A DNA stretch of 64,000 nucleotides. Source: an uncultured virus (IMG/VR IMGVR_UViG_2061766007_000135) (Duplodnaviria; Heunggongvirae; Uroviricota; Caudoviricetes). The stretch is from IMG/VR virus record IMGVR_UViG_2061766007_000135; one strand, given 5' to 3'. A program made the position numbers and the translations under genes. The notes beneath the pieces were generated by a model. It was not told the DNA's origin. It saw nothing but the letters and a program-made list of their open reading frames with translations, and did not search any database. This document shows, piece after piece, positions 1,538 through 64,000 of this stretch. Within the stretch, counting starts at the first letter, position 1; every line of letters begins with the position of its first letter.

Positions 1538-1539
1538 AT

Positions 1540-11380: not shown

Positions 11381-11963
11381 TGCTGGTTTTAAACGTATAA
11401 GTAAATATAAAGATGATGAAAGCATCATCTTGCCAGTGCGTAAAACAAAAGCATCCGCAGGCTATGATTTTTATGTCGCGGAAGATATTGTTGTACCTAG
11501 CTGGTCAAGTACTATTGAAGCGGATTTCGCAAATGAATTAGCGAAAGATTTAAGTTCATATTATGGAACCTTTGAAGACTTTGTGAAAACTCTACCTTAT
11601 GATTTAGAAACTACCTCCACTCTAGTAAAGAAGTATAACCATAAGGTTACATTAGTACCAACTGGTATTAAGGCTTATATGCCCGATGATTGGTATTTAC
11701 AGCTTAGTGTGCGTTCAAGTCTTCCTTTAAAGCATTGGATTATTTTAGGTAATGGCGTCGGAATTATTGACTCTGATTATTATAATAATCCAGATAATGA
11801 AGGCCATATTTATTTTCAATTAATTAATCTTTTACCTTTTGATATACAACTGAAGAAAGGCGATTGTATTGGTCAGGGAGTCTTTCTACAGTATGGTACG
11901 GTAAATGATGATAAGGGTAATGACACTGAACGTGTCGGCGGATTAGGTTCTACAGATGCGTAA
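11370..11963 (+). CDS. dut: Trimeric dUTPase
   Basis: SAGYDF, LVPTGIKA, RSS, GIIDSDYY, IGQGVF, RVGGLGST motifs. Confidence 0.93.
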   Translation: MNINAGFKRISKYKDDESIILPVRKTKASAGYDFYVAEDIVVPSWSSTIEADFANELAKDLSSYYGTFEDFVKTLPYDLETTSTLVKKYNHKVTLVPTGIKAYMPDDWYLQLSVRSSLPLKHWIILGNGVGIIDSDYYNNPDNEGHIYFQLINLLPFDIQLKKGDCIGQGVFLQYGTVNDDKGNDTERVGGLGSTDA

Positions 11964-12444
11964 TATATTAGCATTAGATCAGGCTACCCGTACTACCGGG
12001 TGGTCTGTTTGGCATAATAATACCCTGACTGAATATGGACATATAACTTTTGATGATGAAGATCCATTTAAACGCAATCATCATTTTTGTTAGTGGCTAG
12101 GCACTATGATAGAAACAAGAGACATTGAGTTTGTAGTTATTGAAGATATTTAGATGTAGGTGTAGAATGTCTCTACATTTTAGAAATTGGCTTGGCTCTA
12201 GGGCGCTATCATTGAAAAAGTGCTATGCTAGAATTTAGATTATAAACTATTACGTCCAACTGAGTGGCGTGCAACTTGTAATCTTTTAAAAGGCTAGGAT
12301 AAGCACCGTGAGAATTAGAAAAAAATTGCATAGGATTGGGTGCTAACACATTTTAATCGTAAATGTACCCAAGATGAAGCTGATGCAATTTGTATAGGAT
12401 ACGCCGCAATTACTGCGGAAGATAATGAATTAAATTGGGAGTGA
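11956..12444 (+). CDS. ruvC: RuvC-like Holliday junction resolvase (162 aa, 10 in-frame TAG read as Gln); missing from the ORF track
   Basis: Hand translation: MRNILALDQATRTTGWSV...VVIEDI(Q)M(Q)V(Q)NVSTF(Q)KLAWL(Q)G...PTEWR...TQDEADAICIG; RNase H-fold acidic motifs; fills the dut-holin gap exactly; ends TGA. Confidence 0.88.
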
Positions 12445-12448
12445 GTAT

Positions 12449-12862
12449 ATGGAATGGGCTGTTATAATTGAAGAAGTATTTCGTATTGTATTAATTCCAT
12501 TAGTCGGCATTGCAGTTAAATACTTAATTCAATTTGTAAATATGAAAATTGATGAATTTCAACATAAAACAGATAATGAATTGTATCAAAAATATTTAGC
12601 TATGTTGAATGATACAATAGTAAATGCTGTTACTACTACTAATCAAACTTATGTAGATAGTTTAAAAGCACAAGGTAAATTTGATCTTGAAGCGCAACGT
12701 ATTGCATTCCAAAAGACATATGATGCTGTTATTGCGGTTCTTGGTGAGGAAGCACAGCGTTATTTAAGCGCTGCAGTTGGTGATTTAAATCAATATATTA
12801 CCAACGCTATTGAGCGTCAAGTAGTACTTGATAAATTACTGACACCTGCTACAAATGGATAA
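12449..12862 (+). CDS. Holin-like membrane protein (LL-H-type), TAG-free
   Basis: Single N-terminal hydrophobic helix, AVTTTNQTYVDSLK segment, C-terminal IERQV; family call from recall, not from a search. Confidence 0.6.
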   Translation: MEWAVIIEEVFRIVLIPLVGIAVKYLIQFVNMKIDEFQHKTDNELYQKYLAMLNDTIVNAVTTTNQTYVDSLKAQGKFDLEAQRIAFQKTYDAVIAVLGEEAQRYLSAAVGDLNQYITNAIERQVVLDKLLTPATNG

Positions 12863-12908
12863 AAAAAATAAGGGGTTACTCGTATTTGAGTAACCCCTTA
12901 TTTTTTTT
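12861..12908. terminator. Bidirectional rho-independent terminator
   Basis: Perfect 21-bp inverted repeat AAAAAAAATAAGGGGTTACTC-gtattt-GAGTAACCCCTTATTTTTTTT between convergent stop codons. Confidence 0.93.
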
Positions 12909-13479
12909 ATCCAATTTCATTATGTTCATGTAATGGTAAAGCACGCACACGCTCGTCCCAAATATCCATATGACCATTACCACCTAAATCATGATATAAA
13001 GTCATACGTTCATTATATTGCATTAATTCAATCGGCGTAATATACCCACGCTCAATATAGATTTTACAAGTTTGAATTAAATTATGCAAATGTAAATCTA
13101 AAACACCTTGTTGCAATAATAAAGAATCTTGTTTACTATCTTTTAAATCTGCTCGAATTTCAGCAACTGAACGTTGTAAGTCTTTAACCGCGATTAAAAT
13201 TTCATCGTCTACAGCTTTACTTGCAGCTTCGGCTTGTGCAAATTTTTTATCAATAGCTTCTTCCATAATACGTATTTGCACCTAACATTTTTCACTTAAT
13301 GCTGTTGAGTTACGAGCAAAAGCATCCCATTCCGCCTATTCACGTTGTCGAGCACCTGCTTGTCTATCTTTTTTATTAGGATCAATCAGGTGCTTAGCGA
13401 TTAGTCCGATAATCGCCGCCGCAAGAACTGGAATACCCCATTTAACAAGAGTTTCCAATACTAAACCCCATGTAACCAT
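12907..13479 (-). CDS. Lysis-region membrane-anchored coiled-coil protein (190 aa, 2 TAG)
   Basis: GGAAGGGGAG SD; N-terminal TM (WGIPVLAAAIIGLIA), C-terminal YHDLGGNG...VRALP typical of holin-adjacent Firmicute phage proteins. Confidence 0.7.
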
Positions 13480-13494
13480 ATTTACTCCCCTTCC

Positions 13495-13851
13495 TTAGCC
13501 TAGGATAGCATCTTTGTCATCGCTAGGCTCGCTATCACATTGAGGAGCGAGTTCCGCGATTGCTTTATAATTTTCAGCAATTTTTTTGTAATTTTCTACA
13601 CCGGCTTTTGCTGTATAACCGAGACGCAATGATACATATGTCGTAGTTAAATAAGCAAAAATTGTTTGTGCAAAAGTACCAAGTTCAGGTCTAATCATTA
13701 ATAAAATTAATAGTGTTAAAGATAAAAAAACCCACGTTATTATATCAACAATCGTGAGCTTTTTACTAAATTCAAGCGGTCGCTTTTGCTTTCGCTAAGA
13801 TTGCGGCGATTGCTTTTGCTTGCGCTTCGCTATCGCATTCTAACTTGACAT
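13495..13851 (-). CDS. Putative two-TM holin-like protein (118 aa, 2 TAG), overlapping the endolysin 3' end
   Basis: EFSKKL + TM1 + TM2 + YTAKAGVENYKK; the only ATG upstream of TM1 in the stretch read is 13851, reached through two TAGs. Confidence 0.55.
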
Positions 13852-14692
13852 ACCATTTTTCTTTAGATTCTGAACCATTAACTTTTACCAAATATTTATT
13901 AGACATATAACCAGATTTGTCGTTCCATTCAATGGCTGACCAATCGCCTTCAACAGCCAGCACATCAACAATTTGCCCAAAACGTATAGTAGTAACTACC
14001 CCATATTGTGTGCCGGGGCCTTTACGTAAATTAACTGTAGAGCCGGATGTACCAGTAACTTTAGCTTGATAAACCATTTTTTTCACCTCGATTTTATCTG
14101 GCTGGCTTGGCTGAATGCAGCACTTTTCAGCTTCACCATAATTGGTATATATTACAGTACCAGGATAATAAAATTCTAAAATTTGTTTATAATTAAATCC
14201 TTGTTTAGCCATTTCTTTTGCTCCATACTATGACATACCTACACCATGGCCATTACCTGGACCATTGTCATATGGATCAATTTTAGCTTGTAAATAAGGA
14301 CGATCGCCACCCCATTTTTCTTTTGCGGATTTAATGCGACCTCCATTAGAATTACTATATGAACAAGTTTCTATTAATTTGCCATTATAATATAAAACTT
14401 CCCCTTTTGTCTCTTCTACAGCTAACATTGCATTAGGATACAAAGAGGAAATACGAGAGGCGCGGAAAGCCTAATGTTTACTACTTTGATCAGTAATATA
14501 CCCTTTGTGGGTATACGTATAAAGAGCAAAAGTCCGCGCGGCAACTGCTTGGGCTTTACAAGCTTCTAAAAGGGCGTTGCCAATCTCACTTGGTACAACG
14601 CCCTTCAAATACTCTTCAAACTCAAGATCTACTTCATTCACTCCATAGTGTTCTAGGTTTTCCTATCGTGAAAGAGCGACTTTAATATTCAT
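13772..14692 (-). CDS. SpoIID/LytB-family lytic transglycosylase + SH3b domain (probable endolysin; 306 aa, 3 TAG)
   Basis: EEYLKGVVPSEI, EACKAQAVAARTFA, AVEETKGEVLYYNG, SNGG, PYL, GHGVGMS(Q)YGA...ILEFYYPG; C-terminal VNLRKGPGT...GYMSNKYL SH3; TAGs at 14663, 14471, 14228. Confidence 0.9.
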
Positions 14693-14991
14693 CAGAATAC
14701 AATATTTACACTAACTGAAATCTCTGTGCCGTTAAGAGATTCATTAATTGAACTAATATGAGCAGTAAGCTGGTCAATATTATAAAGTGTATTCTGTTGG
14801 TCATCCTTAATAGTTAAACGATTAATACCATTTAGGCCATAATCACGAAGCCAACTTGCGGTATTGGCATCATTTACAACATTTAAATAAGCCATAGAAT
14901 TCATAATACCATTCTCAAAAGTAGTATTACGATTAAAACCAGTCAACTGAATAGTCTTGCCAGCATCGCCATTAAATATTACATAAGTCAT
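14692..14991 (-). CDS. Hypothetical protein (99 aa), TAG-free
   Basis: GGAGGG SD; TGATG coupling to the endolysin. Confidence 0.75.
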   Translation of the reverse strand: MTYVIFNGDAGKTIQLTGFNRNTTFENGIMNSMAYLNVVNDANTASWLRDYGLNGINRLTIKDDQQNTLYNIDQLTAHISSINESLNGTEISVSVNIVF

Positions 14992-15008
14992 AATGCTTAA
15001 CCCTCCAA

Positions 15009-16058
15009 TTATATAAATAAAGCTCCATTGCCGAGTAGCTTAATATAGCTTTCCGGCATATCATTATTAGCAGTAGCCCAACAATAAATCGACATAATAG
15101 CATTAAATAATTTATCTCGATCTTGCTCAATTACTTCATTCTATGCTACCAACTAATCCATTTTATTTTCAAAATCATTACGAATAGTTTGAAGATTTAT
15201 GCCCCTATTAACCAAAAGATGACAATCATAAATATTGCCTTGATAATCTATGGTTTTACTTTCGATACCTGCTAGACAACGATGATATTCACTTGTATAA
15301 AACATTTCATTATAAGTTTCATACTAACGTGCTACATATACCCATTTATTATAATTAATTCCATCCTATTTGGTATAATTTCCTGGGACTTCCATAGTAG
15401 GAGCAGTTAATCCCACTTGCCAATATTCAGAACCAAAAGGAGCATTCTCTATATTGGGTAAAAGTTTTTTATGTAAATGCGTCATATCAGTAAACCATAA
15501 TACAGGATCAAAAGTTAAATCTTCGGCTGTTAAAGTGGCTTTTGTAATTAACCGTAATTTTGTATATGTGTATAAGTGAATATCTGCTATATAAGTATTA
15601 TAAATAGTTGAAATATTATTTACACAAGTATCAAAAGAATTAATACCACGTTTATTATCGTGCAAGCGTTTGGGCCCATCTAAGCTTAATTGTATAATAA
15701 CAATTAATTTACGTTTATGTAAAGTACAATAAGTTAAAAGTGGCTTAATAAAATCCTAATAAAAAGAAATAGATTGCCCATTTGTAGGAATCATAATATA
15801 CCGAATATAAGGGTCATAGTCTAAAATTTCGGTAATAAATTTTTCAAAATATTTACCATTAATACTAGGTTCCATACCCCAGATACCTAAACTAATAATA
15901 TCTGGAGTTAAAGCGGCTCGAACATGATGCGCAAAACTCCCATCTTGTAATGCAGCAACAATATTAGCATTAGTATTATGCTGTTTATTCTACATAATAC
16001 AATAAGTACATTGTTCATTACAAATATCACTATAATATATATCTAAATTTGTTATCAT
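15009..16058 (-). CDS. Radical SAM enzyme with SPASM/twitch-like C-terminus (349 aa, 6 TAG)
   Basis: CNEQCTYC (CxxxCxxC), WGMEP, PTNG, SLDGPKRLHDNKRG, CLAGIESKTIDYQGNIYDCH; ends TAA. Confidence 0.85.
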
Positions 16059-16123
16059 GATTCAAACCACTTTTCATCTTCCCAGGTATTTAGCCACAAA
16101 GCTACACATAAAGACATACACAT
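16055..16123 (-). CDS. Small Trp/Cys-rich ORF MCMSLCVALWLNTWEDEKWFES (22 aa), candidate leader or precursor peptide
   Basis: AAGGGGGT SD 8 nt upstream; its TGA overlaps the radical SAM ATG (ATGA). Confidence 0.45.
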   Translation of the reverse strand: MCMSLCVALWLNTWEDEKWFES

Positions 16124-16145
16124 TTCATTTTACCCCCTTTACTTT

Positions 16146-16174
16146 ACAGTATAAAATTTTTGTCATTTTGTCAA
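16146..16174 (-). promoter_or_regulatory. Possible sigma70-type promoter for the peptide/radical SAM/lysis genes
   Basis: TTGACA (16174-16169), 17-nt spacer, TACTGT (or TATACT at 15-nt spacing). Confidence 0.45.
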
Positions 16175-16177
16175 ATT

Positions 16178-18292
16178 TTATCGCACATAAATCCAAATGC
16201 GGCCATTAACTTCAATATCTTTAGGCACTTCTTTAGAACCTGCGTGCCAAATTTCATAATTCGGAATTTCTGAAACAGTACCAATAATTCGTTCTGGATA
16301 CATCATAATTTCTTCACGAGTCATTATATCTACTGTCCCATCAGGAGCACTACATACAGCTGCACCTAATGAATAATCATCACGATTACGATATGGATAA
16401 ACTAATACACGTCCACTTACTGCAATAGGAGTTTTACATTCTTCTGTTTCACCAATAGCAACACCAAAAGTGTCTGAAATAATTTTAGCACTGGGCATTA
16501 AACGTTCAGTTGCTAATTGCATAATGCCAGTTTGAGTTTCAATAACTACTCTGCCGGGTTCATCTATATTAGTTGCTCGATATTCAGCATAATCATTCCA
16601 CACGGCACCTTTAATACCTAAAGTACTCCTTACATAAGATGCTCCATCACGATAAATTAACCAAGCACCACTACCTGTAACAACTGTACGTGCATTACCA
16701 TCCCAATATGTATTAGTATATACACCCTAAGCTCCACCTGAACAACCGAAATAGACGTCTAAATTCTTCTAATCTCCATCAGCATTTCTTACTGCAAACC
16801 ATCTCTATGAACTATCTGGACTTTCAATCGTAATAGTATTTTTAAACCACCACATAGAGGTCCCATAACTCCATGAAATTTTACCTGCATGAGTTGAATC
16901 ATTATCATTATAAGGGAAAAGAGCTATGCTTGGATCATAATTATTTTGTGCTTTTATACAAAGTGTACCGCCTACATTGTGATCACCAATATAAACATCA
17001 TCACCTATAGCAAACCAAGTGTTATTTACACCCGTTTTTACTGCATTGGGATCATCTGCGTAACCATAAAAATGAAAATGTGCATCAGTGCTATCATAAT
17101 GCATTATAGTAGTATAAGTACCACTACTATAATTTCCTAAACGTAATTTATTATTATAAAAATCTAATTGTGCATAAGAACTAGTGTCATTATATCTATA
17201 TAATCTAATGGTTCCGCCATTACCACTACCTGTGGTAGTACCACTACCATCCGCCCATATTGCAACTCCTTGAAGCCATTGTTTTGATAATACCTAAAAA
17301 GTAGTAACTGGTATTGAAGTTATTACTGAACCATCTTTATAATATGAACCAAAAAATGTTGTCATCCAATCTAACCAAGTCCCATTATTATAATTACGTT
17401 GTAAAATTTGATACCCAGTCATATCTGGACCAACTACAGATCGCGCGCGTATAAAATCATATCCTAATTTATCATGATAACTTACACTATCAACTTCCTC
17501 ATCTGGTGCATTAGAAGCACCTAAATTATTATACTGTATTGTAAGAGAGGAATTAGCACTTTCATTTTTTAAACAAACATTTCTTATTACGGGAGCTGTT
17601 GACCATGAAGGAGGAGCACCAGTGCCGCCACCAACTAAAACTACATTACCAGCACCTACATCTGTTGATGCAGTTGTCTATGCATCAGTCGCATAAATTA
17701 CTCCCTAAGTAGTATAATTAGTAGATGATTTACCTACAAAATATCTATTACCACCTACCGCAGGAATCGTCCAAGTTCGATCTGAACTAGCCGCACTTTC
17801 AATAGTTGCGCAATAAGCATTACTATTATATAATTTAATCTATCCTTTATAATTGCCTTTAGTGCCAGAAGCAGTCGCATTACCTATTTGTAATGTACTT
17901 ACGCCAATAGCGCTTGTTGTACCCATTGTAGATAGATGCGCACGAAATGCAGTAGTACTACCACTGGTATCATAAATATAATATCCACCACCAGTGCCAC
18001 TGCGATAAAGAAAAATTTCTTGTTTGCAACCAAGACGTTTATCAACTACTAATCCACCTTTAATATACAAAGAGCCATTATTAGTTGATGAACTATCAGT
18101 AATACCATTTATAGTAACTACCCAACTTGCAGCATCAGTGCCGGCAGTAGAAATACCACCATACCATTGACCATTAGAGGGAGTAAAATATAATTCATTA
18201 GCATTAATTGTGTTATTGGCTAATGCGGCATCATATTGCGCCTATGTTAAATAATTAATTCTCAAAGGAGAAACACTTGTTGTTGTAGCCAT
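16178..18292 (-). CDS. Tail fibre/spike with C-terminal intramolecular chaperone (peptidase G2-like) domain (704 aa, code 15)
   Basis: Fragments 17840, 16805 and 16178 share one frame joined by TAGs; C-terminus WNDYAEY...PGRV...IISDTFG...PIAVSGRVLV; N-terminus INYLT(Q)AQY. Confidence 0.8.
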
Positions 18293-18309
18293 TATATTTT
18301 ACCACCTTT

Positions 18310-19062: not shown

Positions 19063-19066
19063 TAAC

Positions 19067-23999: not shown

Positions 24000-25940
24000 T
24001 TATATTTCTAAAAACTATTCCGCGGAGAACCGAATGTTATCATTGATTTGAGGATTAATAGTCATATTATCTTTTTCTTGTAATTCACTATTAATAACTC
24101 CAATACGCATTACTGCAAAAGCCATTGGATTTTGTTCATTTACAATTAAATGTTTATTACTTGGTATCGTCGTTGAATTACAATAATCTAATTTCAGTTT
24201 ACCATACGCATTATTAGGTAAATTATATTTTTCAGGAAACACTAAGCTATGATTTAATGTAAGTGTAGCACTTGATGGCTATGCACTATTATTGGTTGTA
24301 GTTGTTGATATTGTTTTATTAGCCACAGTTATAGTGGTAAGTAAATTATCATTTTCATCATAAATATCTAAATGCCAAGCTACTCGTGAATATAACAAAT
24401 AATAATATTGAGTACTAGCATTAGCACTACTTTTTCTAGAATAACTAAATTTTTTTCCCGAAACAGTAATAAGAGGATAAGTAAACTAATATTCTTTATT
24501 ATTAATTAGATTAATAGAATGATTAAAAGTTACTATTGTTCTAGTTGCACTAATATATTTTGTAACCATTTTTCCACTCTCATAAGTCTAATAGCTACCA
24601 CAATGAAAACTTTCAGTAGTTGTAGTATAAGTACTTGAAGTAGTTATTACATCTGAAATTGTAGTAGATTCATTATCAGCAATTTCATTATACTCATAAC
24701 CATAGGCATTATGAGCATCATCAATACGTAAACCTAAAAAATATAAACTAGATACCTATTCCGCAGTTAAAGCTGTACTATATATTCGAAAATCATCTAT
24801 ATAATAATCATTAGAAGCATACGTGGTAACATTATCCCATCCATTTAAAAAAATAGTAGTACCAGTAATAGCTTTATAAGTTTTAGCTTCTGCCCATAAA
24901 ACTCCATCCTAATATACGCGACATTTTGTGCCATCACCTGTCATAACCCAATGATGCCAAGTATTTAATGTAGGTTTTGTAACCTAAGTAGTAGTGCCCG
25001 GATTATATAAAGGATTACTAGATGAATCACCAGTATTCCATAAATTACCATTATATAATCCATTTAAACGAACACCATCCTTAAAACCCCAATGCATTGG
25101 ACCATTACTTGATATTTTTGCCCACCACGCAAAGCTGTAATTATTAGTAAAATCTGTAACATTTAAATTACTTATCTATACATGCTAATTAGTTGCAGTA
25201 AAATGTAAACTCTTTAAATAACGTCCCGTATCTGTAGTAAATACTGGAGTGTTAATTATCGAACCATTAAATCCATAACCTGAATTATCATAAATAGTTG
25301 TACCATCAGCTTCATCACATTTTAAATGCACAACTAAACCTTTGGCTAACTCTTGTACTTCTGCAATAGATAAACAATGATCATATAAACGAAAATCATT
25401 TATCTTACCTTCTAAAGCTGTAGCACCTGTCTGTTTATCACGCCCTAAATAATAAGCACCTTGTGTTTTAGTGCGAGTCGTTAGCGGTCCAGTCCAAGTT
25501 TGTTGTACAACACCATCAACATATAAAAGTAATGTGGTACCATCATATGTATATGCAATATGCGCCCAAGTATCTTGTTCTATATTAAAAGTTGATGATA
25601 AATCAGGACTACCAGCCCAATAAAAACGTAAGTTATGTGCTGCGCTTAACTCAATATTAAAATTTATTCCGCCAGTTAAGTTATAATCCCCAAAAATCAC
25701 ACCACGACTAGCTTCATTATGCTATATCCAAAAAGCAATAGTAAATGGAACATTCCCACCTGTAATAATACTATAAAAAATTTCTCCTGTCAAAGATATA
25801 TAATCATCACTACCATCAAAAGAATAACTTTGACATAACTTACCACTAGAAACTACCGCTCCACTTACTACTGCATCTATTGAAGCATATCCATTATTTT
25901 TTAATGTCCCATTAAGAGGGAGCCATACTGCTAATGCCAT
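24000..25940 (-). CDS. LamG/concanavalin A-like lectin domain tail protein (646 aa, code 15)
   Basis: Starts MALAVWLPLNG; WAHIAYTYDG...LYVDG...GKINDFRLYD LamG-like signatures; ends FLEI-TAA. Confidence 0.82.
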
Positions 25941-37726: not shown

Positions 37727-37746
37727 TCAATGCTACCTCCTTTAAA

Positions 37747-40089: not shown

Positions 40090-40121
40090 AAAAAAATTGG
40101 GAGCCTTACAAGAAGGCTCCC
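40090..40121 (-). terminator. Hairpin with U-tract (terminator or attenuator)
   Basis: GGGAGCCTT-cttgt-AAGGCTCCC 9-bp stem followed by AATTTTTTT on the minus strand. Confidence 0.7.
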
Positions 40122-40128: not shown

Positions 40129-40174
40129 TAAATAATATAAAATTATTTCTACATTATTTAATCATTCATGCCCA
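40129..40174 (-). promoter_or_regulatory. Putative phage-specific motif, copy C
   Basis: TGGGCAT-N7-TAA-AT-AA-TG-TA, same spacing as copies A and B. Confidence 0.35.
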
Positions 40175-40370
40175 TATCCACTTCTTGCCATTTAGCAATT
40201 TCAGAAGCGGGAATGGTCACAATTTTTACACGTCTTTCACCATCGGTTAAGATTTTACCATTATCGGCATGAAGCTTGAGTAATTTTACAGAGTAAATAC
40301 CCTCTAAATATACTTGGCTTTCAATCGTACCATTGGTGCCCAAATAACGATACATTGGAGTTTTAGTCAT
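40158..40370 (-). CDS. Small tail-associated hypothetical protein (70 aa), TAG-free
   Basis: AAGGAGG SD before ATG 40370; LHADNGKILTDG motif. Confidence 0.75.
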   Translation of the reverse strand: MTKTPMYRYLGTNGTIESQVYLEGIYSVKLLKLHADNGKILTDGERRVKIVTIPASEIAKWQEVDMGMND

Positions 40371-48055: not shown

Positions 48056-48085
48056 TTTAAAACTCCTTTCTCTCAATGAGAATCA

Positions 48086-50014: not shown

Positions 50015-50036
50015 GTATTCTCATCTCCTTAATTAA

Positions 50037-51188: not shown

Positions 51189-51206
51189 ATGTTAACTCCC
51201 TCCCAT

Positions 51207-51252
51207 CATTAATTTTCAAAATTAAATTATGTTAGTTATTATAACTTGCCCA
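51207..51252 (-). promoter_or_regulatory. Putative phage-specific motif, copy B
   Basis: TGGGCAA-N7-TAA-CT-AA-CA-TA-ATTTAATTTTGAAAATTAATG in the intergenic gap before 51188. Confidence 0.45.
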
Positions 51253-51253
51253 C

Positions 51254-51640
51254 TTAGAGGTCATCATTAACATAATCAATAAATAACCAACGTTCCTCTG
51301 TAGGATGCCCAGTGTTCCAAGCAATTAAACGATCAACAGAAGCAGCATCCATTTTAATATTATAAATAGGAGACATATTTAAAACCCGGGCCGGAAAAGT
51401 AAAGGTATAAGATGAAGATCCCTACTCTATTGGATTACCTGGATGTAAAATACGTATCATTGTAGGAGTATCATTAACATAAAATCCAAATCCTATTAAA
51501 GCACTAATAGTTAAACTCACAATACGAGTTTTACTATCCCAAATCGTGCCACCAACTAGCTAATTGCGTGTTAACCCAGCTGGGAAATTACGAGCATCTC
51601 CATCTTTAATATAACGAATCTATTTCTATCTAAGTGCCAT
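51254..51640 (-). CDS. Hypothetical protein (128 aa, 4 TAG); missing from the ORF track
   Basis: AAGGAG SD; MALR(Q)K(Q)IRY...; ends TAA. Confidence 0.75.
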
Positions 51641-51654: not shown

Positions 51655-54600
51655 TTATAATAATCGTTCCGCCGCAATGTTTGCTTGCATAGACATCAAA
51701 CCATCATATGCCAAAGAAATACTAATAGATCTAATAACATATTCTCCCCGAATTCCACTATTCATATCTACTACTTTAATACGATGATTTGGTTCTAAAT
51801 AATAAATTGGTAAACAACTAACAGTAATTGAATCTTGATAATAAGTTGTTTCATAAAGTAAATTATCTAATTCATCTTTAGCACTTTTGCCTTGATAGCT
51901 TAACTAAAAATATTGTGCTAAACCAGAAGTTAATTGCAAATAAACATAACTAATATTGTGTTCACGCGGCTAATAACTATCATCAGGATCCATAAATAAA
52001 ACTTCGGGAATATCTCTAACGAATATAGCTTTTATATTTTTATCATTAATTACTTTAGGCCGATGGCCGATCAAACTAATTTTATATTTCCCTAAATCAG
52101 AACCAGCATCAATAAAATCTAACCAAAATAGCATTGATTCAGGTCGTAAAAATTTTAATAATGTATCGCCAGTGTTAATATTTAATTCACAATAAATTAC
52201 ATCAGGGTCCCAGTAACAATTATTAACCCACTAATCTTCATATTTCCGAGCTAATAATTCACGTCTATGATTAGCTTGTTCTTCTTCAAAAAGAATCTAA
52301 GTCTATCCAACGCCAACCCAAGTATTATTATCACCGGTACGATAATTATTATAAATAGTATTACCAGTTTCTGGTAACGGAATATTATGCGTATTATTAT
52401 TATCTGGTTTGCTCCATTGTAATAATGTAGTTAAACAATCAATCATTGCATTTTTCCATTGAGTCAATGCTGGGGAATGTGAGACATCTATCGCTGTATA
52501 ACCAGTTGGAATTTCAACTGTATTTTCACTATTATTTAAAGCAATAGTGTTAATAAAAGTAGTACCTAACTAAAAATTCTAAGCTGCTTCACTGCCAATT
52601 ACTTTTACTAAATTTAATACTAAAGCTTGCCATAACGTATTTGCCGCGCTGCGTATACGTAGTTCACGTTCATCAGTAGTAATAGCCGTATTACGCATTA
52701 ATGAATTATAACTTGCAGTAAAATTACTTAAAGCACCCTAAATATCTATGCGTGTCAATGCTAAATTCGACTATTCACTTGTCTATATGACAGCTTTATC
52801 CGCATCTGTTAAATCTAATAATTCACTCAAAGTATTTTCAGTGCGATAAAGTTTAGGCCAAAATTCTAATAAATCAGTAAAATAAATCTCATAACGTGAA
52901 CTCAATCTTTCTTCCCACATTTGAATCTCTTGCATAAACGCTTCAACTCGATGTGTAAAACCTACTTGCCGATCAGTATCACTATTTAAAGTAGCATAAC
53001 CTAAACCTTTTACTGGAACTAAATCATAAACACGAATTACGCCACGGCCATAATTATCAATAATTCTTGCCCAATCACTTGTAAATGTACTATTGGCATC
53101 AGCCAAACTGAAAAAAATAGTTTTATTACAATTACGAAGCCAATCAGTCCAAGTATATAAAGTCTATTGATTCTTTAAACGTTTCTCGTTGGTTTGCGCT
53201 AAATCATTCTAACAAATATGACGAAAACGATTAATCGAATCATCCCAAATCCAAAAACCGCGATATTCATTATCTACATTACCACAAAACGTACTTAAAG
53301 TTACATTCTAGTAAGCAATTGCTTTATAAGGTTCAGTAAAAGACCCACATAATGTGCGGCCCAAGGGCGTATTACCACTATAATCTGCATCATTATCTGC
53401 ATACAAATTAATTAAACGATTAATATCTACAATATTTAAAATTAAAGTATTATCTCGTGCAAGAGTCAACACTCTTACTCTTGCCTGTGCTTGTGAATAA
53501 TCCACTGCCATACGATATAATAACTCACGCCAATCAACACAATAACTAACCCCATGCGTTTGATCTAACTATACCCAAGCTGCTCCAAAAAATTTTGAAG
53601 AATTTGGACGCGGCATATTTAAATCATCGTTATAAATAGGATATGGCTCTTGCATACGCTTATAATCTTGTTCAATTTTATCCTAATCGCGTGCGGCTAA
53701 AGCAATGCGTTCATCAGATTTACTTAAAATAGTAGTATTTTCACGCCATTCACCATTAGTGTAATTAATATTAAGATCTGCACGATACCAAATATCATTA
53801 TTTAAACAATGATAAACAACAGGTTTGTCATCAATAGCGCAACGTAAGTGGCAAGGAGCAGTATATTTGCTTTCTACATTACTAATTTCACCCCAAATAA
53901 TCCAATCATTGCGGACATTTAATAAATTTGGTTTATTAACATATGATTCTACCTATTGATTTTCTGCAAAATCATAAATATAAGTAGCTTCCTATGTGCT
54001 AGCAAAATAACCAGTAGTGGCTTCACTTGGTTGTACACCATTCCAAATAATATTATGATAAATTTTTTTACGTTGAAAAATAAAACGCCCATATACATCA
54101 TAATAATATTCAAATTCACCAAGTACTTCTTTAATTTTATCTAATAATTGAACAATAGTACCGCCAGCCGAAATAATTAATTCACCTGGCATAGTTAACT
54201 CAGTACGCTAATACCCCGCGGTGTCACCATATTCCAAATGTTTAACTACACGCACATAACGATCTTGATAAGTAGGTTTATCTAAATTAATTGTATTATC
54301 ATCTTGCGGCTAATAATTCCAAGTATTTAATAGCCACTAGCCCATATCATCTGTCTCTAAAGCAAAATTACTTGTATAATCAGAGAACGTAGGAGTCAAT
54401 GATAAATCATAAATAAATGCACTTACATTTTTTAAACGATAATCTAACAAAGTAACAGATACATCTTCAAGATCATTAATAATAATATTTTCAAAACTTT
54501 CGTGCGCATATACATGAATAGCATTTCTAATAATTTCTTCAATAGTCAAATCTACTTTTTCTACAGTGCCATCAGGTTGCATTGCATCTAACACACCGAA

Positions 54601-55053
54601 ATCGTGCTCTGCAAATACAGACCCTCCAACACTACCATCAAGTAAACACATTTTATCTTTGCCGGTTAAAGAAATATTAATACCTTGTAAATTATTCTAA
54701 ATAGATAATGATGTTGTTATAAATAAACCCTATGGGAACCAAATAATATCTTCATATTTATCATCGACAAAATTTTTTAAACCAATAAATAAAGCATATT
54801 TTGTATGAATTTGCCAATCTGCCTCATTTACATTAGGTATTTCTGTAATCATCTATAAACTAACTGTTCTGCGGCAAGCCGAAGAACCATCAATAGTTAA
54901 ACTGCCTGATACAATATTGCCTGTAATTTCTTGTAAAGGTAATTCATTAAAATTTAAAACTACTACTTTACAAAACTATTCACGAATTGGATAGGTATCT
55001 AATTTTAACAAAAAGTTTTTATCCTATAATGCAGGTTCTTTATGCATATACAT
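51655..55053 (-). CDS. Baseplate hub/tail tip-like protein (1132 aa, code 15)
   Basis: GGAGG SD; IDGSSACRRT N-terminus, FEYYYDVYGRFIFQ, C-terminal PIYYLEPNHRIKV...GEYVIRSISI; fragments 54337/53992/53308/52783 in one frame. Confidence 0.72.
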
Positions 55054-55068
55054 AGTTATTTACCTCCA

Positions 55069-57981
55069 TTATAATTTAGATTTTAACTATTGATTTAATA
55101 TAGCTAAAGTGCTTCGATAAATACCACGATTACTCTATATGATAGCCGCAGAATAAGTTTCATTATCTACAACATACCAATCATAGTCTTGATATAGTTC
55201 CATTTCACTACGATTAATTGGTACAAAACGTCTATTACGCCAAATAAAAAGTGTTGTATCTGCCGACAAACCACTAATTTCACTATGGTAAGTTAACTGT
55301 CTTAAATTAAATGCTGTTCTACACCATTCTTGATAAGTCTCTTCACATCTAGTAGAATTATAAGTTACATCATTTGCACTTTCAATCGCATAAACAGATT
55401 CTTGTATCTAATAATACAAATTTGTAAAAACACCTGGTGTTAAACGCAAAAATACATCAGCACTATCCCTATAATCAATTTCTGGTAAAATAGAGCCTGT
55501 CTACATCGCTTGGACATCTGTACCGGTAGCATTCTATGGCAATTTTGGATTTTTTACATAAATCATATGAGAATAATCAACTGGCACTAATGTTTCGCCA
55601 TTATACTAATAATATGTCTAATTAGTATGATATAAAACCCATTTATCATATAACAAAATATATCCTTGTACAATATCTGCATTTGTAGCATCCGTCCACC
55701 ATTCTGGAGTAACAGATACACCTATACTTGCACTTTCAATAATAGGATAAGTATGAATAGACATAAAATACTCAGATACTACAGACCGTTTTAAAGTTGA
55801 TAATTCATACAAAATATTCATTTGATATGCTGGATCGTTTTCTGGATTATTACCGGGTGGTAAATCATCAATACCATAACCACTCCAACCATAATAAGTA
55901 GAAACAGTCTATGTATCTACACGTTCATCACTTTCTGCATCAGTTACGACCCATTCCATTGTAATTTTACCAGTATCATTCAAGCCATTGGGATTACTTA
56001 AATATAAAGGAGCTTCATATGGTTCATCTAATGTTAAGGCATATCTATTAGAAGGGCCTACTGCAAAATCATATTCACCCCAATGGAACGCGGTACCAAC
56101 AATATTAACTGTTTGTCCTCCACCTTCGCCAGGATCAATAATGATACTGGTACAAGCATGGCCTTCTGTCCAATCCCATTCAGATAAATAAGTAATTACT
56201 TGCGCCTAATCATACTATGTTGATGCCTAATATTCCATACGTTTTTCTTGAATATAACGTGTAACTGTACGTGTCACAGCTACATGCTATGAACCATTAC
56301 GAATAATATCATAATGTAATAATTCTTCAAAAGTAAATGCAGCTACTTCACTAGCCGTAGCAGAAAAAGTATGTAACATACGACCCGTAGTATTTTCTGG
56401 TGTTAAAGAAATATTAGTTAATTTTACAATATAATTACCTTCCATTGGAGATTTAAATAACTTAATTTTACCATTATTTAACCAAGCCAAAACTTCTAAG
56501 CAAAATACACGTTCTGCGGTAATATTACGATCAGTTAAATCTGTCGTATCTATAAAAACATCAGCTAAATGATCTAATCGGCCATTGTCTCTCTAATAGC
56601 CATTAATTAAACTATCTTTAGCTATTAACTCATCTTTAGAAATAAATAATTCTTCATTATCACTTAAATAAGTTAATAACCCACCAATAGTAAACTCTTT
56701 ATAATTTAATGCACCATTGCGCATAATAACTGGGTATTTGCGGCCGATAGTTGTTTTTTTCACTTCAGAAATTACAGTTTTAAATGAATTAACATTGGCA
56801 TTAAAACTTAATTTAATCTATTTCTCGCCATCATATAAAAACATAAATTCAAAAAATGCAGTGACTGGCTCACTCTCTACACGACGAGATTTAATATTTT
56901 GATTATTAATTTTTTCAATACCATATTTATAACTTATGCCTGATTCTACTGTATAATCAATATATTCCCAATCAGCAAACTTTTCTGCGGACTAAAAAGT
57001 ATACATTGTAGACCAAACATTATAATTACTATTACTATCTGTACGTAAAATAGCATAAGATCCATTAAATGCCCATAGCTCTGGATTCGTTTTCTAAGAG
57101 TGTTCATTAGCTTGCTAATTATCTCTTGCTTCATATGGATCATCTACATTTGGATCACGCCAAGCAGTCGCGCGCGCATGTAATTTTATACGTCCATTAT
57201 CATAATCTAATTCTGGGAATAATTCAAAAGGTAATAAAATACCAATATTCGCCATACTTGTAATCGTATAAATAGCACTATTTATTTCTAATCCATTAAT
57301 AGTACGAATACTATAAGTTAATAAATAAGAACGACCTGTAGTTAAAGTAGCTTGAGCAATAAATAAATCATTAGACCGGCCTAATTCTGTATCTTGGCTA
57401 CTATCATGAATTGTCCAATTAGTATCTTCAACTACTTGAGTAGTAGAACTACCTTGTGCATTAGTTTCCAAACTTTTTAAAATAAATCTATATTCATATA
57501 CTTTTTCAGATATATCATTATTTAAATAAATACCTGTAAAATATCTATTCATTATAGAATTTATAGTCTATGAATCTAAACCTTCAATACCAACAGATGG
57601 CTCATTAGTATATTTTACAATAGAGGCCGTAGAATAAAAACCAATATATGGAGTAGTATCCGCGGCGCGATTAAAATAAGCTAGCTAAACTTTATAGAAA
57701 TTACCTGTCACTAATTTCGCTACTGTAGTTGCCGCTAATGAAAAAGTAACTGTAAAATTTTCTGTATCCCAAATGGTAGCCTATTCAATAGCAACAAGAG
57801 TATCTGTGGTGGTTGTTTTAATACGTAAAGCAAAACCTGCTACTTCAGATACTCTAACAGCCGAATTCATAGTAAATGGGACTACCAATTTGGTAGTCCC
57901 ATTTTTACTATCTGTATAAAATGAAGGTAATGTGCCAGCTAAATTGGGAGGTAATAAACGATTTAGCTGCGCCATAGTCAT
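55069..57981 (-). CDS. Tail/baseplate structural protein (970 aa, code 15)
   Basis: TAATG-coupled start; fragments 57781/57115/56287/55618 in one frame; KLFKSPMEGNYIVKLTNISLTP segment; ends TAA next to the downstream SD. Confidence 0.7.
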
Positions 57982-58367
57982 TACTCCTCTTCTTCAAGAA
58001 TTACTTCAAAAGCTTCAACCTGCTTTGGAGTCAACTCCAAATTCTCGATTAAACTAACTGGAATTGTGCGCAAATCTACTTCAGAAGTAAACGCATCCAA
58101 TTCAGCACGTGCCTTGCGGCATTCCTCTTCCAAGCCTTCCTTAATCTTGAATACATTCTCAGCAGTCTGGACAAACTGTCCATTTTCATCCTGCTCAAGA
58201 TAATCCTGCGCAAACTTGCGCTCTTGATCTATATAAAATTCCGTTTCTTTCTTCAATGCTGCTGAGTTCTTTGCAAGAATTAAACTCAACTTAAAAGGCA
58301 ACTTCATCTCCTGAAGTTCATCAATTGCCGCAGAAAGATTAGAAATCTGATTAAAAGTAAGTGTCAT
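57981..58367 (-). CDS. Hypothetical acidic protein (128 aa), TAG-free, possible tail assembly chaperone
   Basis: AAGGAG SD; complete in the standard code; 8 Gln codons, none TAG; function is inference only. Confidence 0.7.
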   Translation of the reverse strand: MTLTFNQISNLSAAIDELQEMKLPFKLSLILAKNSAALKKETEFYIDQERKFAQDYLEQDENGQFVQTAENVFKIKEGLEEECRKARAELDAFTSEVDLRTIPVSLIENLELTPKQVEAFEVILEEEE

Positions 58368-58397
58368 ATAAAAATATCTCCTTTATCTCTTTAATAA

Positions 58398-61300
58398 TTA
58401 AGTCCAAGTTACGCGACCTGCGCCGGTATAAAACCAACCACTAGATGGATTTGAGTCACTACTTGTATTTGCATATAAATCTGCATAAACAATATTATTA
58501 AATTTATATTGAGTAGAACTATTACTATATCTTTGGAAATAATAACCCGTGCCCTAGCCAGTACTTGCTGTATAAGATCTATCAGTCGTACCATCCACTG
58601 TTAGTGATGGGCCATATACAGTATCACCGCGACGCTCAAATTTAGCTGCTGCAGCATCCCAACCTGCTTTATAAGCTGCATTATAAAAAGTTTCCAAACT
58701 ATATTGTGCATAAGCAGTATTATTACTTGTTAACTAAATTTTAGCCTATTTTCCTTCTCCTGATTTAGCTAAACTCATACTTACACTATTTGTATTAATA
58801 CCCGCTGGACTAGCGGCACTGCTACTTTCATATAAGCGAGCATAGGCACTTAAATTTAAATTTGAACTATTGCCGGCCACCAATTTGACGACGTGCCCTT
58901 TATACCAAGCGGTGTCGGCCATATTAAAACCCGTTGTAGTAATTGTAACTCCACCAACAGTGAGAGATGGTGTAATTGTTCCATTTGTGGCAGAAAAACT
59001 AAGACTAGTATTCGAATTACTAATAATAGTTACTGCCTCTGAAGTTTGACCTTCAACTTTTGCACCACCATTTGGCGCAGTATTTGCTAATGTTAATTGT
59101 CCATTTGAATAGGTTGGTGTTATTAAATGGAAATGTTTACCACCTAAAACAACTAAATTAGGTGTAATAGACTGCGCAGTACTTTCGGGTATGCCATTAA
59201 CACCGCCCGTAGTATAATTAATTATATATCCTTGTGAATAAAGCTCATCTAAATCTCCATTCATAGATGTAGTCACTGAAATTTCTTTAATAATTGCACT
59301 CGATGCTAAACGAATAGCTTGATTAGCTGCATTAATACCACTATTTGCATTCGATAGGGCCTATTGCGCAGTACCCATTGCACTTGCAGTATCTTCAGCA
59401 TTATTACCAATTGATCCACCCAAATTGGATAAAGAAGTATTAATTCCTGCCATAGCAGTCTAAAAAGCAGTTTGAGTTATAACGGGCTCATTATTAATCC
59501 AAATACCTTCAGTGGCACTAATGCGTGTAGCTTGAATATTCCAAAGATGCCCAGTAATCCCCAACTAACTATCAGTACTTAATGGATATAAAGCAATACG
59601 AGAATTATTGTTATTAGGATGCTAAAATGCAATGCCTATTCCTCCATTGCCATTAATACCTAAAGAACTATCAGGAGTACCTAATGGATCTGATTGATTA
59701 TAACAGATTGTATAAACTCCACCATTATAATTAATAATAGCATTAGTATCTATATTACCAGTATTAGTATTAACCGTAGATGTAGTAATACTAGTTGTAC
59801 CTCTAATAGTGCCAGTAGAAGTAGTAATACCATTATCTATTAAACCATCATTTGATCCTGAACCTGAATCTCCATCTCGATTACCAGAACGTAAAATACG
59901 TGTTTGATTAGGTTCAGAATTATTATTATTAGAACCACTTGCTTCTGAAGGAGTACCTACTCCATAATTCCATGAACTACCTACTGTATCAGTCGATGTA
60001 GTTAATGATACAATACTAGATCCGCCAATTACCGTTGAACTATATGTAGTTATACCATGAGTATGAGCAGTAATATTAATATTACTCATAATAATATGTG
60101 AATCTGTTGCAAAAGCAGTAATGTTTAATGAATCATTTGGCGTAGTAAAAGTAGGTTTGCCCAAAAATAATACGCCATTTGTACCATCTAATACAATCTA
60201 TGAATTTGCTAATGTAATTTGATTATTGGCTCCATCTAAATGGATACCATAACACCACTAATTATTATAAGCACTATTATTATAACTACGTTTAATATAA
60301 ATACTAGATGAGCCAATTACCCAACCATTTAAATTACCGCCTAATAATAATCCATCTTTTTCAGCAATATAATTTGCTAAAGCTCCTGCATCAATCCCCT
60401 ATAGAGTTCTAGCTGATGACATAAAAGTACTAGCTAACATACGCCATATAAGCTATTGATTATTATTAATTGTTTCAAATCCACAATAATACTAACGAGT
60501 GCCTAATTCATCTTGTATAGTAACTTTAGTATTCGTTAAAGTAACCGGATTATCAAATTCATCTGTTGTAGTTTGTAAAACAATAGTTAAAGCAGTTAAT
60601 TCATCATTTTCATCACGAGTTTCTGTAAAGCTACCATTTAATATATAAATAGAGCCACCAGCTTCGATATGATCATAAATCTAATCTACGGTATTAGCAG
60701 CATTCTACGTCTAGAAATTAGTAATCACGACATTAGAAGTAACTGTATAACTCTGTGTAGTTGCAGTATCTCCAGTGGGCGGAATACCAATACGCGATTC
60801 ATTATTAGTTAAAATACTACCATCTACATCACTGCCGATAATACGTGCTTTCTCTGCCTGTAATCTGCGGCAATAGACTGTACCATCAGTACGCACACCA
60901 AAATTAATACCTTCATAAGGTGTACCAGCATAAATAGCGAAATTACCAAAAGTACCAAATGCTTCAGGCCCCAAATATGTTAATGAAGTATCATTTTGTG
61001 GCAACTATAATGAATTAACCCAAGTTTGATAATCATTACCGGTAGCATATGTATATGGATAATTAATATTTTGCCGCAATATCTAATCTACATAAAATTT
61101 AGGCACTGCAATCTGGGTATTAGTATTTATTTGTCCATTACCTTCAACAATTGCTTCTTTACCATTTAACTTACTACCATTTGGTAATAACTAATGATTT
61201 AATGAATTACCATATTCATCTATAAATAAGGTTTTTCCTTGAGATGGATTACTTCCATTTCTAACATTGCTACTGTTTGGATTACCATCCTATTCCGGAT

Positions 61301-64000
61301 CACCTAAGAATATTATACCAGAATTATTTTTTTGTGTCAAACCAGCATCAGAAATATACCAAGGACTATCATAGCCAATTTTTCCGTGTCGCGCAGTCAT
61401 ATATCCATTCCAACGAACACTAAAGAATGGATTACTAACATATTGTCCACCGCGCCAAGGATTCTCATAGCCAGCATAAATCGCAAATTGATTAATATCT
61501 GCATCACCATAAATAGTATTATAAATATTACTCAATAAACGCTATTGCTCTCTACGGTAATCTTCTTGTAATTGTTCCTAAGATTTTAACTATAATTGTC
61601 TTACAGTTTCACCCAATTCTGCTAATGCCGCTGGATCATCATCTTCATCTGGATTTATCTCTACTTCAGTCAAAGAAATTTGATCATTACGAATTGCCGC
61701 ATATCCACCAATAGCTTCTAAGATTGTAGTCGCTTCAATATAATCTTGTAATTTAGCTGGATCGGCATGTAACTAATTAATACCAGATTCCAACATAGAT
61801 GCTAACTACCAACAAAAACATTTACGATAATACTCATATACTTTATAGAAAATACGAATTTGTCTCTAAAGTGTTTCAACATCAGCAATTTCAGTACGAG
61901 ATAGCAATATAGGAATATTAAATCTAGAACCCTCTATAGTAATATCAGGATCAATAGGGAAAGCAACCTAATTTAAAGCGACATTCGAATTTCTATAATA
62001 TGTATAAGTAGATGATAAAGCTGCAGGAGTAATTGTAACTATACTACTATTTTGAATACGACCAACTGGTTCACCAATTTCAGTAATACGAATATAAGCA
62101 GCATAATCGCTCATATCTTGCCAAACCCATTGACCATTCTATTTAACTTTCACTTTAGGATTCCATAAATAGCGATCAGTTTCTTCTACAGGGTAAGTTT
62201 TATCTGGCAATGTCGCTTCAACAGTATTATCTGGTCTACATTCAGGATCCCAATAATTAGATAAAGTTATCTAATAACCATTCCATAACGCAGTCTAAGC
62301 ACTTAAATAACCATAGGACTAAGTATAGCGCTTACTAGTTACGGCACTTACGCCCCCACTTTTCCTATATACACTATGAGCAGTAGGAACATTAAAATAA
62401 TGATTATGCACAAATGTTTCTACATTTCGCATACTCAATGGTCCGTCTAAACTCCAATCATTTGGATCATCGGGATTAATTACAATAGCAGTTAAATTAT
62501 CTATATTATAAATTTCATTATGTAAATCTTCTAAAGTAACTTCTTCTCCTTGTAAAGAACGTTCATACCAAGTAGCGATCTATCTATCCAAATATTCTGC
62601 GGTATTACGTGCCGCAGTACCAAATGTATAATAATGATATACATCTTCTGAATATAAACTCTAATCAAAATATTGTGAAATACGGGCAAAAACACTTTCA
62701 GGACTTGTAGGTGTCCAATCTTCAAACTCAAAAGTAGGAACAGTCTATGCATTCAAATAACCTTCTACATATGCCGCGATAACATTGGTTAAATCTAAAT
62801 GCACCTATTGCGTATCTGGATCAGTTACTAATAAAGATTCTAAAACTTCACCAGGCGATTCTTCATCTGTAATAGACCAAGTTTCATTTGCTTCATCAAT
62901 AATTACATAAGAAGAAAGAGTCTAATCATTTTCATCATAACTTAAATCATCACGCAAAAAAGTCTTAATCTAATTGACACTATCTTCATAAGAAATTTCG
63001 CCCTAACGATAAGCAGAATATAATTCATGCATATAACGATAACGCACTTTTGCACGTTCTGCTTTAACATAAGCTGCATATGTATTACCAGCACCTAATA
63101 ATTCAATAATAGCCGCATCAATTTCACTAGTTTCTTTAGTAGATGCCATACCTAAATACATATAACGACTTAAAGAAGGAACATTTTCATTAATATGTTC
63201 TTGATATAAACCTTGATTATTAATATACCAATTACCAATACGACCATACTTAGTAGCAATGCCGCCAGTAATTAATGTGCCTTGATTTGGATCAACAATA
63301 AAATAGTTATTTATTGGATCTTTTAAGAATTGATCCGCCCAAGTCATTTTATACTATTCTTCTTTTGGCAACATTAATTGAGTAGCACTAAGAGGAACTT
63401 TACAATATAGGAAATACTAAGAAATACCTGCTTCAGAAGTATCATACCAATTAGTTGTCTTATCTAAATATGTAACCGTATTAGGATTTAAATTTAAATA
63501 ACACGTTTTAGTTGAATTACTTAAAAGTGCATTACGACCATCGAATTGAATACGACCCTTACCTGCGGGACCAATAAAACCAGTACCATCTTCAGTAAAT
63601 CCAAAAGACATTGTTCCATTGTGGAAACCATAAATACCAGCTTGATCCATTGAAGAATCAGCTTTAACCGCCCAATTACCTAACATAACGCCAGTAAATT
63701 GATTACGACTATTTTTAGTGCCTGCGGCAATCATAGTGCTTAAAATTGCACCATTGGTTTCATCTAATGTTAAACTTACTCCATTCCAATCATTTACTAA
63801 AGATGAAGTATAAATATATCGCTAAAATGCAATAGCCTAACATACGTGTGTATGCGCCTAATCATTTAATTCAAAATGTAAATATGTGAAATATGGTTCA
63901 GTATTTAATTCATCTTTCCATTGCCAATAAGTATTATAATCATTGGTGTCGCCTTCTGCTTTATCGCCATAGCGAAGATAAAACTCATTAACTGGCGGAG
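58398..64000 (-). CDS. Very large tail protein (>1860 aa, code 15), 5'-truncated by window edge
   Basis: Fragments 63417/63003/61290/60711/59622/58746 all in one frame; GRIGNWYI, FSVRWNG, FGVRTDG beta-repeat motifs; frame open to the window end; ends VTWT-TAA. Confidence 0.78.

Follow-up and report, generated by a model that had tools for sequence, protein, structure and literature searches.

Tailed phages in which the stop codon TAG is read as glutamine (Gln; genetic code 15) are already known (Borges 2021; Babkin 2023), as a first-pass annotation of the DNA considered here had itself acknowledged, and our analysis adds a new and distant member to them. The DNA is a 64,000-nucleotide (nt) stretch of an uncultured virus (IMG/VR record IMGVR_UViG_2061766007_000135), which we call the window; its subject of interest is the set of late genes, most of them structural or lytic and one encoding a RuvC-type resolvase, in which TAG occurs in frame. 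We show that TAG in these genes is a sense codon, that it stands for Gln, and that the split between TAG-free early genes and TAG-bearing late genes is real. The observations as a whole are, with high probability in our view, best explained by two coding regimes, in which TAG is Gln in the late genes and the expression of those genes would be timed by a suppressor transfer RNA (tRNA).

Among the GenBank phage records listed, phAss-1 (OQ749652, proposed genus Phassvirus) has the highest polymerase identity to the window (39%), and together with MT835469 it gives the widest match to the tail protein of 1132 amino acids (aa) among the GenBank phages listed by tblastn (29% identity for phAss-1), a search that matches Enterococcus phages as well. 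NCBI places it in the 'Caudoviricetes code 15 clade'. According to the genome account in PMC10607447, it is a large gut phage of siphovirus type that reads TAG as Gln in its tail, tape-measure and lysis genes, likewise the case here, and that has a tRNA array with suppressor tRNA-CUA, comprising three tRNA-Sup-CTA genes typed as Gln by tRNAscan-SE, with no synthetase of its own in that account. The two phages have in common a PolIII-alpha-type DNA polymerase, NrdD/NrdG, a dUTPase and RuvC. They differ in that the same account (PMC10607447) gives the holin and dUTPase genes of phAss-1 as recoded, whereas both are TAG-free in the window, and in that phAss-1 comes from the human gut, whereas the sequencing runs that best contain the window are labelled bovine gut metagenome. 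Members of Phassvirus are described as 80-86% identical to one another in nucleotides (PMC10607447). Since megablast of positions 1-12900 finds no match among 50,697 phage records, and since the polymerase is only 39% identical, the window phage, judged by sequence, is not a member of Phassvirus.

The code-15 crAss-like, Lak, Jade, Sapphire and Agate phages, as presented by Borges et al. (bioRxiv 10.1101/2021.08.26.457843), show the arrangement that we find here, with structural and lysis genes recoded and replication genes compatible with the standard code; these phages carry suppressor tRNAs, for which a role as a timer of late expression was proposed. The proteomic proof of TAG as Gln presented by Peters et al. 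2022 (PMC9523058) concerns crAss-like phages only. The polymerase and tail genes of the window are nearest to those of Bacillota phages, in contrast to the clades of Borges et al., where the comparison is with phages of Bacteroidota hosts. As regards Crassvirales, the polymerase of the window is of the PolIII-alpha/PHP type, with its best matches in phAss-1, Enterococcus and SPbeta-like phages, and capsid and terminase lie outside the window. A PolIII-alpha-type polymerase at about 37% identity, a RuvC gene near gmk or dut and the phrog_32343 tail protein are likewise found in a group of phages with the standard code, namely the Enterococcus phages EF1/VRE9, SPbeta-like Bacillus phages and the Clostridioides phage phiCD211; unlike the window, their aligned RuvC genes have no in-frame TAG, and we used the group as standard-code references for Gln columns. 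We take the window to belong to a large tailed phage whose host is of Bacillota type.

The closest DNA-level relatives among those examined in IMG/VR all combine in-frame TAG with a tRNA-CUA. The polymerase of G001 (IMGVR_UViG_3300024270_001991, 168.7 kb; the same phage as G002) is 62% identical to that of the window, and this relative is syntenic with the window across the tail and lysis module; the polymerases of G003 and G004 are 53% identical. G001 is less densely recoded, its homologue of the 2555-aa virion protein being without TAG (35% identity over 2595 columns). Recoding reaches further in G003 and G004, where RecJ, helicase, polymerase, gmk, NrdG and holin contain TAG as well; the holin homologues of these two have 2-3 TAG.

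Under the standard code (code 11), the window presents long open reading frames (ORFs) on the plus strand at 1-12862 and nothing but fragments on the minus strand at 12907-64000. When TAG is read as sense, the fragments merge into closely packed genes, the longest of 2562 aa, and the final ORF is still open where the window ends. Minus-strand ORFs of at least 100 aa span 41.0% of 12900-64000 when code 11 is applied and 97.9% when TAG is sense, whereas freeing TGA or TAA in the same way gives just 41.6% and 47.5%; the gain is therefore specific to TAG, and reassignment of TGA or TAA is rejected. The first-pass annotation, made from the letters alone, had stated that TAG-ended minus-strand fragments join in one frame and that standard annotation would miss or fragment about 50 kb, and both statements agree with these figures (41% of about 51 kb spanned by code-11 ORFs of at least 100 aa). 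It had also named TAA or TGA inside the reconstructed genes as the observation that would speak against recoding, and none is in frame in the 29 late genes: the 27 on the minus strand contain 237 TAG, are free of TAA and TGA in frame, and end in TAA or TGA. Most genes start, as it described, with a Shine-Dalgarno sequence and ATG, GTG or TTG, a GGAGG-like sequence preceding most late-gene starts. Its remark that no gene ends in TAG holds for the TAG-free plus-strand genes (0 of 11), the only ones that can test it and weak at that number, and is true by construction for the recoded genes.

The early set (plus strand, 25-11963) consists of 10 genes and 3,918 codons, with 98 CAA, 38 CAG and no TAG. 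The late set (2 plus-strand and 27 minus-strand genes, 17,073 codons) has 345 CAA, 39 CAG and 247 TAG; in-frame TAA and TGA are absent from both sets, and the stop of every gene counted is TAA or TGA. Comparing TAG with CAA/CAG, the early genes give 0 against 136 and the late genes 247 against 384 (Fisher p = 1.7e-26), so the replication module reads alike under the standard code and code 15. In the recoded genes TAG makes up 39% of Gln-type codons. Counting CAA and CAG alone, the late genes have a Gln content of 2.25%, which becomes 3.70% when TAG is counted; the early genes have 3.47%. Moreover, the share of CAG among CAA/CAG codons is 28% in the early genes but 10% in the late genes, as expected if CAG drifted to TAG by C-to-T change, and TAG has largely displaced CAG in the recoded genes. 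In-frame TAG in the late genes is thus confirmed as an observation. Recoding is not limited to the minus strand, for the RuvC gene (11956-12444, plus strand) has 10 TAG in 162 codons.

Which amino acid does TAG specify? A large public protein collection stores the 970-aa tail product of the window itself with Q at all 20 TAGs (entry P0001). Part of that collection is thus called under code 15, and residue counts drawn from it would be circular. We therefore excluded protein-database entries from the counts and used DNA-level loci, with TAG written as X. For the 970-aa protein, 94 loci from IMG/VR and GTDB (93 matched) give 84 distinct homologues; 48 of these carry in-frame TAG where they align, and 36 are free of it there. 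Opposite the TAG of residue 99 (57685-57687) these homologues have Gln as CAA/CAG in 43 cases, TAG in 21 and anything else in none, and all 26 TAG-free homologues aligned there have Gln. Opposite the TAG of residue 388 (56818-56820) the counts are Gln 63, TAG 12 and other 8, with Gln in 35 of 35 TAG-free homologues. In the alignment of 36 sequences, columns 99 and 388 are the only Gln columns among the nearly invariant ones, and the chance that both would be TAG is 4e-4. Over all TAG columns of this protein, 63 of the 183 non-gap cells of TAG-free homologues are Gln, where the background is 2.2%, an enrichment of the kind that the earlier reading had called for. In G001, Gln encoded by CAA/CAG occupies 17 of the 78 non-gap columns of window TAGs, close beside 37 of 167 for the window's own CAA/CAG-Gln columns (background 2.4%).

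Motifs indicate the same residue. The SpoIID domain of the putative endolysin (PF08486, 63.3 bits against a cut-off of 23) has the motif GHGVGMSQ, and within it, as GHGVGMS-[TAG]-YGA, lies the TAG at 14228-14230 on the minus strand, exactly where it had been reported; it aligns with Q in all three solved structures compared (PDB 4rwr, 5i1t and 5txu). In contigs from two other studies, about 98% alike to this stretch, the plus strand carries T at 14228 and G at 14230, by which CAA replaces the TAG. One, from run X6, has 991 nt, 21 differences and a depth of 6.1; the other, from run X8, has 233 nt, 4 differences and a low depth of 2.9.

The RuvC gene is the most densely recoded of all, TAG being 10 of its 12 Gln-type codons. 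PF02075 is found in it only with TAG read through (27.6 bits against a cut-off of 22.2, profile positions 1-144 of 148), and a comparison with PDB sequences gives no match at E up to 1. The IEDI-TAG sequence that had been taken as a sign of Gln is present at 12139-12153 (+). Q occupies 6 of the 10 TAG columns in the RuvC proteins of two standard-code Enterococcus phages (P = 7e-5), and the RuvC TAGs of G001 fall on TAGs of the window and on a column with Q in the Enterococcus phages.

Not all comparisons point to Gln, and those that weigh against it are the following. The remaining 18 TAGs of the 970-aa protein fall in variable or gapped columns, and two of its TAG columns have a different consensus, column 138 being Gly in 34 homologues and column 330 Asp in 24. 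None of the 10 TAG columns is Q in five RuvCs of Clostridioides and Streptococcus phages, which are more distant and which likewise fail to keep the two CAA/CAG-Gln columns of the window RuvC. In G003 and G004, Gln is absent from the commonest residues opposite 16 window TAGs each, in tail genes that are about 29-35% identical and in which the window's CAA/CAG-Gln columns are not kept either. The 18 TAGs of G001 itself face mostly non-Gln residues of the window (T 5, N 2, K 2, no Q among those listed). Within the window, paralogues give one TAG-Gln pair among 8 pairs of high-scoring segments, which is uninformative. That pair is the TAG at 30616 and the CAA at 33923, in a 109-residue segment duplicated at 76% identity between the genes 29620-31023 and 33611-37090; it had been offered as a clue to Gln, and while the pair is real and its coordinates exact, a single pair is weak alone. 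On balance, the interpretation of TAG as Gln under code 15 is supported.

How could such genes be decoded? A CUA-anticodon tRNA is present in 4 of the 4 relatives examined (G001, G003, G004 and phAss-1), inside arrays of 27-33 tRNAs, and in G001 the array sits in a TAG-free strand block. The CUA tRNAs of all four share G73 together with a 1:72 pair that is weak or mismatched, both of which are Gln identity elements of tRNA. The relatives also encode tRNA-Gln(CUG). No protein with an RF-1 domain is found in these four genomes, and no class Ic synthetase (for Gln- or Glu-tRNA) in G001, G003 or G004; some Lak and Agate phages, in the account of bioRxiv 10.1101/2021.08.26.457843, encode release factor 2 (RF2), in contrast to the four relatives, in which none was found.

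By analogy with these relatives and with the literature, we propose that the phage encodes an amber suppressor tRNA (anticodon CUA, Gln identity) in a tRNA array beyond the window, which would be charged by the Gln-tRNA pathway of the host and would compete with the host's release factor 1 at UAG. The TAG-bearing late genes would then yield full-length protein only once the suppressor has accumulated. The same suppressor and timer model is put forward in the Borges 2021 preprint (bioRxiv 10.1101/2021.08.26.457843). Such a timer agrees with the clean separation of early from late genes and with the saturation of the resolvase with TAG, but sits less easily with the holin-like gene, whose freedom from TAG weakens the timing role. 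Also unfavourable is that no tRNA lies within the 64-kb window and that an exact search with 60 bases from its right end matched neither viral nor metagenome contigs, which leaves this phage's own suppressor unseen.

The arrays of the relatives show some further features. The only CUA tRNA of G001 (L045 7637-7727 (-), ~33.6 kb) has 91 nt, of which about 21 form the variable arm, and combines an A1/C72 mismatch with G73; it is of class-II shape, while the CUA tRNAs of G003, G004 and phAss-1 have 75-77 nt. The arrays of G004 (L047 7487-7802, 10054-10649) and G003 (L046 7450-7780) each contain one transfer-messenger RNA (tmRNA) gene, and that of G004 also has a full-length ROOL RNA (350 bits). 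Theta ribozymes beside suppressor tRNAs are described by Kienbeck et al. 2024. In the window itself no Rfam family reaches its gathering score.

TAG might also be read as Gln with no dedicated suppressor at all, by near-cognate pairing of tRNA-Gln(CUG) while release factor 1 is inhibited or outcompeted. The lack of a tRNA in the window and the tRNA-Gln(CUG) genes of the relatives would agree with this, and, as those relatives encode neither release factor nor synthetase, some manipulation of the host is conceivable. However, ORFs with 42 and 25 TAG would need read-through to be near complete at every codon, and a dedicated CUA-anticodon tRNA is found in every relative examined, so that we consider near-cognate reading improbable.

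Still less probable is that TAG is a sense codon for some other amino acid, such as Ser, Leu, Tyr, Lys or Trp. The 91-nt CUA tRNA of G001, with its long variable arm, has the shape that tRNAs for Ser, Leu and Tyr typically have, and the T, N and K residues facing the TAGs of G001, as well as the Gly and Asp columns of the 970-aa protein, could be taken in the same sense. Against this, columns 99 and 388, the SpoIID motif, 6 of the 10 RuvC columns and the replacement of TAG by CAA all indicate Gln, no residue other than Gln is similarly enriched, and the RuvC TAGs of G001 lie on TAG or Q columns.

Should the host itself use code 15, with the phage simply matching it, a switch of code would be unnecessary. 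We obtained no supporting evidence for this and give it next to no weight: the 136 Gln codons of the 10 early genes include no TAG, which is unexpected if TAG is an ordinary codon throughout infection, and on the basis of these early genes a code-15 host is rejected. The cultured relatives, moreover, infect Enterococcus and Bacillus, which use the standard code. No bacterium is known to read TAG as Gln. As for the TAGs being an artefact of a decaying prophage or of sequencing errors, this has hardly any chance and is refuted by the asymmetry of stop codons (247 in-frame TAG against 0 TAA/TGA), the frames being intact across every TAG, the starts having Shine-Dalgarno sequences, the stretch being present in several runs, and in-frame TAG being shared by 48 of the 84 distinct relatives. 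The genes of the window are, in order of position:

1-11963, plus strand: early/replication module (PHROGs matches), free of TAG.
1-1512, plus strand, open at the 5' end: RecJ-like exonuclease (PHROGs/Pfam).
2998-6930, plus strand: PolIII-alpha-type DNA polymerase of 1310 aa (PHROGs/Pfam).
Within 1-11963, plus strand: Dda-like helicase, guanylate kinase, NrdD, NrdG (PHROGs/Pfam) and three small ORFs.
11370-11963, plus strand: dUTPase (PHROGs/Pfam), no TAG.
11956-12444, plus strand: RuvC-type Holliday-junction resolvase (PF02075), 10 TAG; its start overlaps the end of the dUTPase gene by 8 nt.
12449-12862, plus strand: holin-like gene of 137 aa with one N-terminal hydrophobic segment (phrog_13712 'holin', E 5e-28), no TAG, 9 CAA, 1 CAG.
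12907-13479, minus strand: small membrane-type protein of 190 aa (one of the phrog_4105/phrog_4257 pair, function unassigned), 2 TAG.
13495-13878, minus strand: small membrane-type protein of 127 aa (the other of that pair, function unassigned), 2 TAG.
13772-14692, minus strand: SpoIID and SH3 protein (PF08486, 63.3 bits; PF08239, 49.9 bits), likely an endolysin, 3 TAG.
14692-14991, minus strand: small gene of 99 aa, no TAG, 3 CAG, 1 CAA.
15009-16058, minus strand: radical-SAM-like protein of 349 aa (phrog_1802, E 9.5e-9), 6 TAG.
16178-37090, minus strand: about eleven genes of tail-fibre or receptor-binding type with LamG-like and BspA-LRR-like domains, 96 TAG in total.
37118-40073, minus strand: three virion-type genes, function unassigned, with 1, 2 and 4 TAG.
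40099-40121, minus strand: GC-rich hairpin and T-run, terminator-like, after the gene 40158-40370 (read from the sequence).
40158-40370, minus strand: small TAG-free gene of 70 aa (read from the sequence).
40388-48055, minus strand: giant virion protein of 2555 aa with C-terminal BspA-type leucine-rich repeats (LRR), 18 TAG.
48086-51640, minus strand: three tail-module genes with 10, 2 and 4 TAG.
51655-55053, minus strand: baseplate/tail protein of 1132 aa (phrog_32343, phrog_1887), 25 TAG.
55069-57981, minus strand: tail protein of 970 aa, 20 TAG.
57981-58367, minus strand: DUF1617-like helical protein of 128 aa (phrog_1401 and Atlas structure matches to DUF1617 clusters), no TAG.
58398-64000, minus strand: tape-measure-like protein of more than 1866 aa, whose ORF leaves the window, 42 TAG.

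Some of these assignments are less firm than others. The tape-measure-like ORF has no family match in PHROGs or Pfam, and we name it by its size, its position and the analogy with the 3149-aa tape measure protein of phAss-1 (PMC10607447). The two membrane-type proteins at 12907-13479 and 13495-13878 are possible lysis accessories, given their position only. The radical-SAM-like protein reaches 20.7 bits with PF04055, under the cut-off of 29.5, and its gene is placed between the endolysin and fibre genes. For the 2555-aa protein, the ATG at 48055 with its Shine-Dalgarno sequence is likely the start rather than the TTG at 48076. The lysis junction is rearranged with respect to G001: in the window (12449-13479) the holin-like gene runs in the direction of RuvC, with the gene of the 190-aa membrane-type protein on the opposite strand, and in G001 these two have exchanged strands.

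The run of fibre genes is unusually long, with shared modules that are shuffled and two gene pairs that have their N-termini in common, and suggests a multi-receptor tail; PF13385 scores 134.7 bits for 24000-25940 and 116.3 bits for 31040-33598. The hairpin at 40099-40121 is the sole clear terminator-like site seen inside the late block, in a region outside that of our promoter and terminator scan, and suggests at least two late transcription units. That scan, of 10000-17000, found no excess over shuffled sequence (39 promoters against 36.6, and 3 terminators against 3.2).

Recoding had been described as extending across the structural and lysis genes. This holds for most of them, the exceptions without TAG being the holin-like gene at 12449-12862(+) and the genes at 14692-14991(-), 40158-40370(-) and 57981-58367(-). 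Along the co-directional run of dUTPase, RuvC and holin-like genes, TAG thus makes up none, 10 of 12 and none of the Gln-type codons. The DUF1617-like gene adjoins both the tape-measure-like ORF, with its 42 TAG, and the 970-aa gene, with its 20; 7 of its 8 Gln codons are CAG, which makes it a codon outlier against the other late genes (P = 7e-9). Counted over 13 recoded relatives, the homologues of this gene contain 2 TAG, 51 CAA and 26 CAG, and the adjacent gene contains 114 TAG, 263 CAA and 45 CAG (p = 7e-8). Since TAG is thus 2 of 79 Gln-type codons in the one and 114 of 422 in the other, avoidance of TAG in the DUF1617-like gene is conserved, with CAG use raised in place of TAG in these homologues. 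We therefore put forward, tentatively and with more doubt than confidence, the idea that TAG load may be set per gene and not per block, as a selected dial of the time and amount of translation.

With regard to sampling, the bovine gut runs may be the source of the stretch. Two runs, X1 and X2, contain 99% of it. Small pieces are found in runs from four other studies, runs X5-X8 leave parts of 8000-17999 uncovered, and there is no RNA run among the runs listed as containing the stretch.

More generally, our results bear on how such phages are annotated, since under the standard code the giant proteins of the tail would be missed or split, as would the endolysin and the resolvase. The two near-invariant Gln columns, together with the change from TAG to CAA in related contigs, provide clean natural evidence for what TAG means. 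Moreover, the lineage is far from the described recoded phages (polymerase 39% identical to that of phAss-1). The range over which code 15 is known in large phages with Bacillota-type hosts becomes wider accordingly, with the bovine gut as the apparent habitat. If TAG load is indeed a dial set gene by gene, the TAG-free genes would encode proteins whose synthesis must precede the suppressor or not depend on it, or that are required in quantities beyond the reach of imperfect suppression, and the TAG-saturated resolvase would be the product most tightly restrained. As a corollary, the conserved TAG-free genes inside recoded DNA would form a small set on which recoding as a timer of late expression could be tested.

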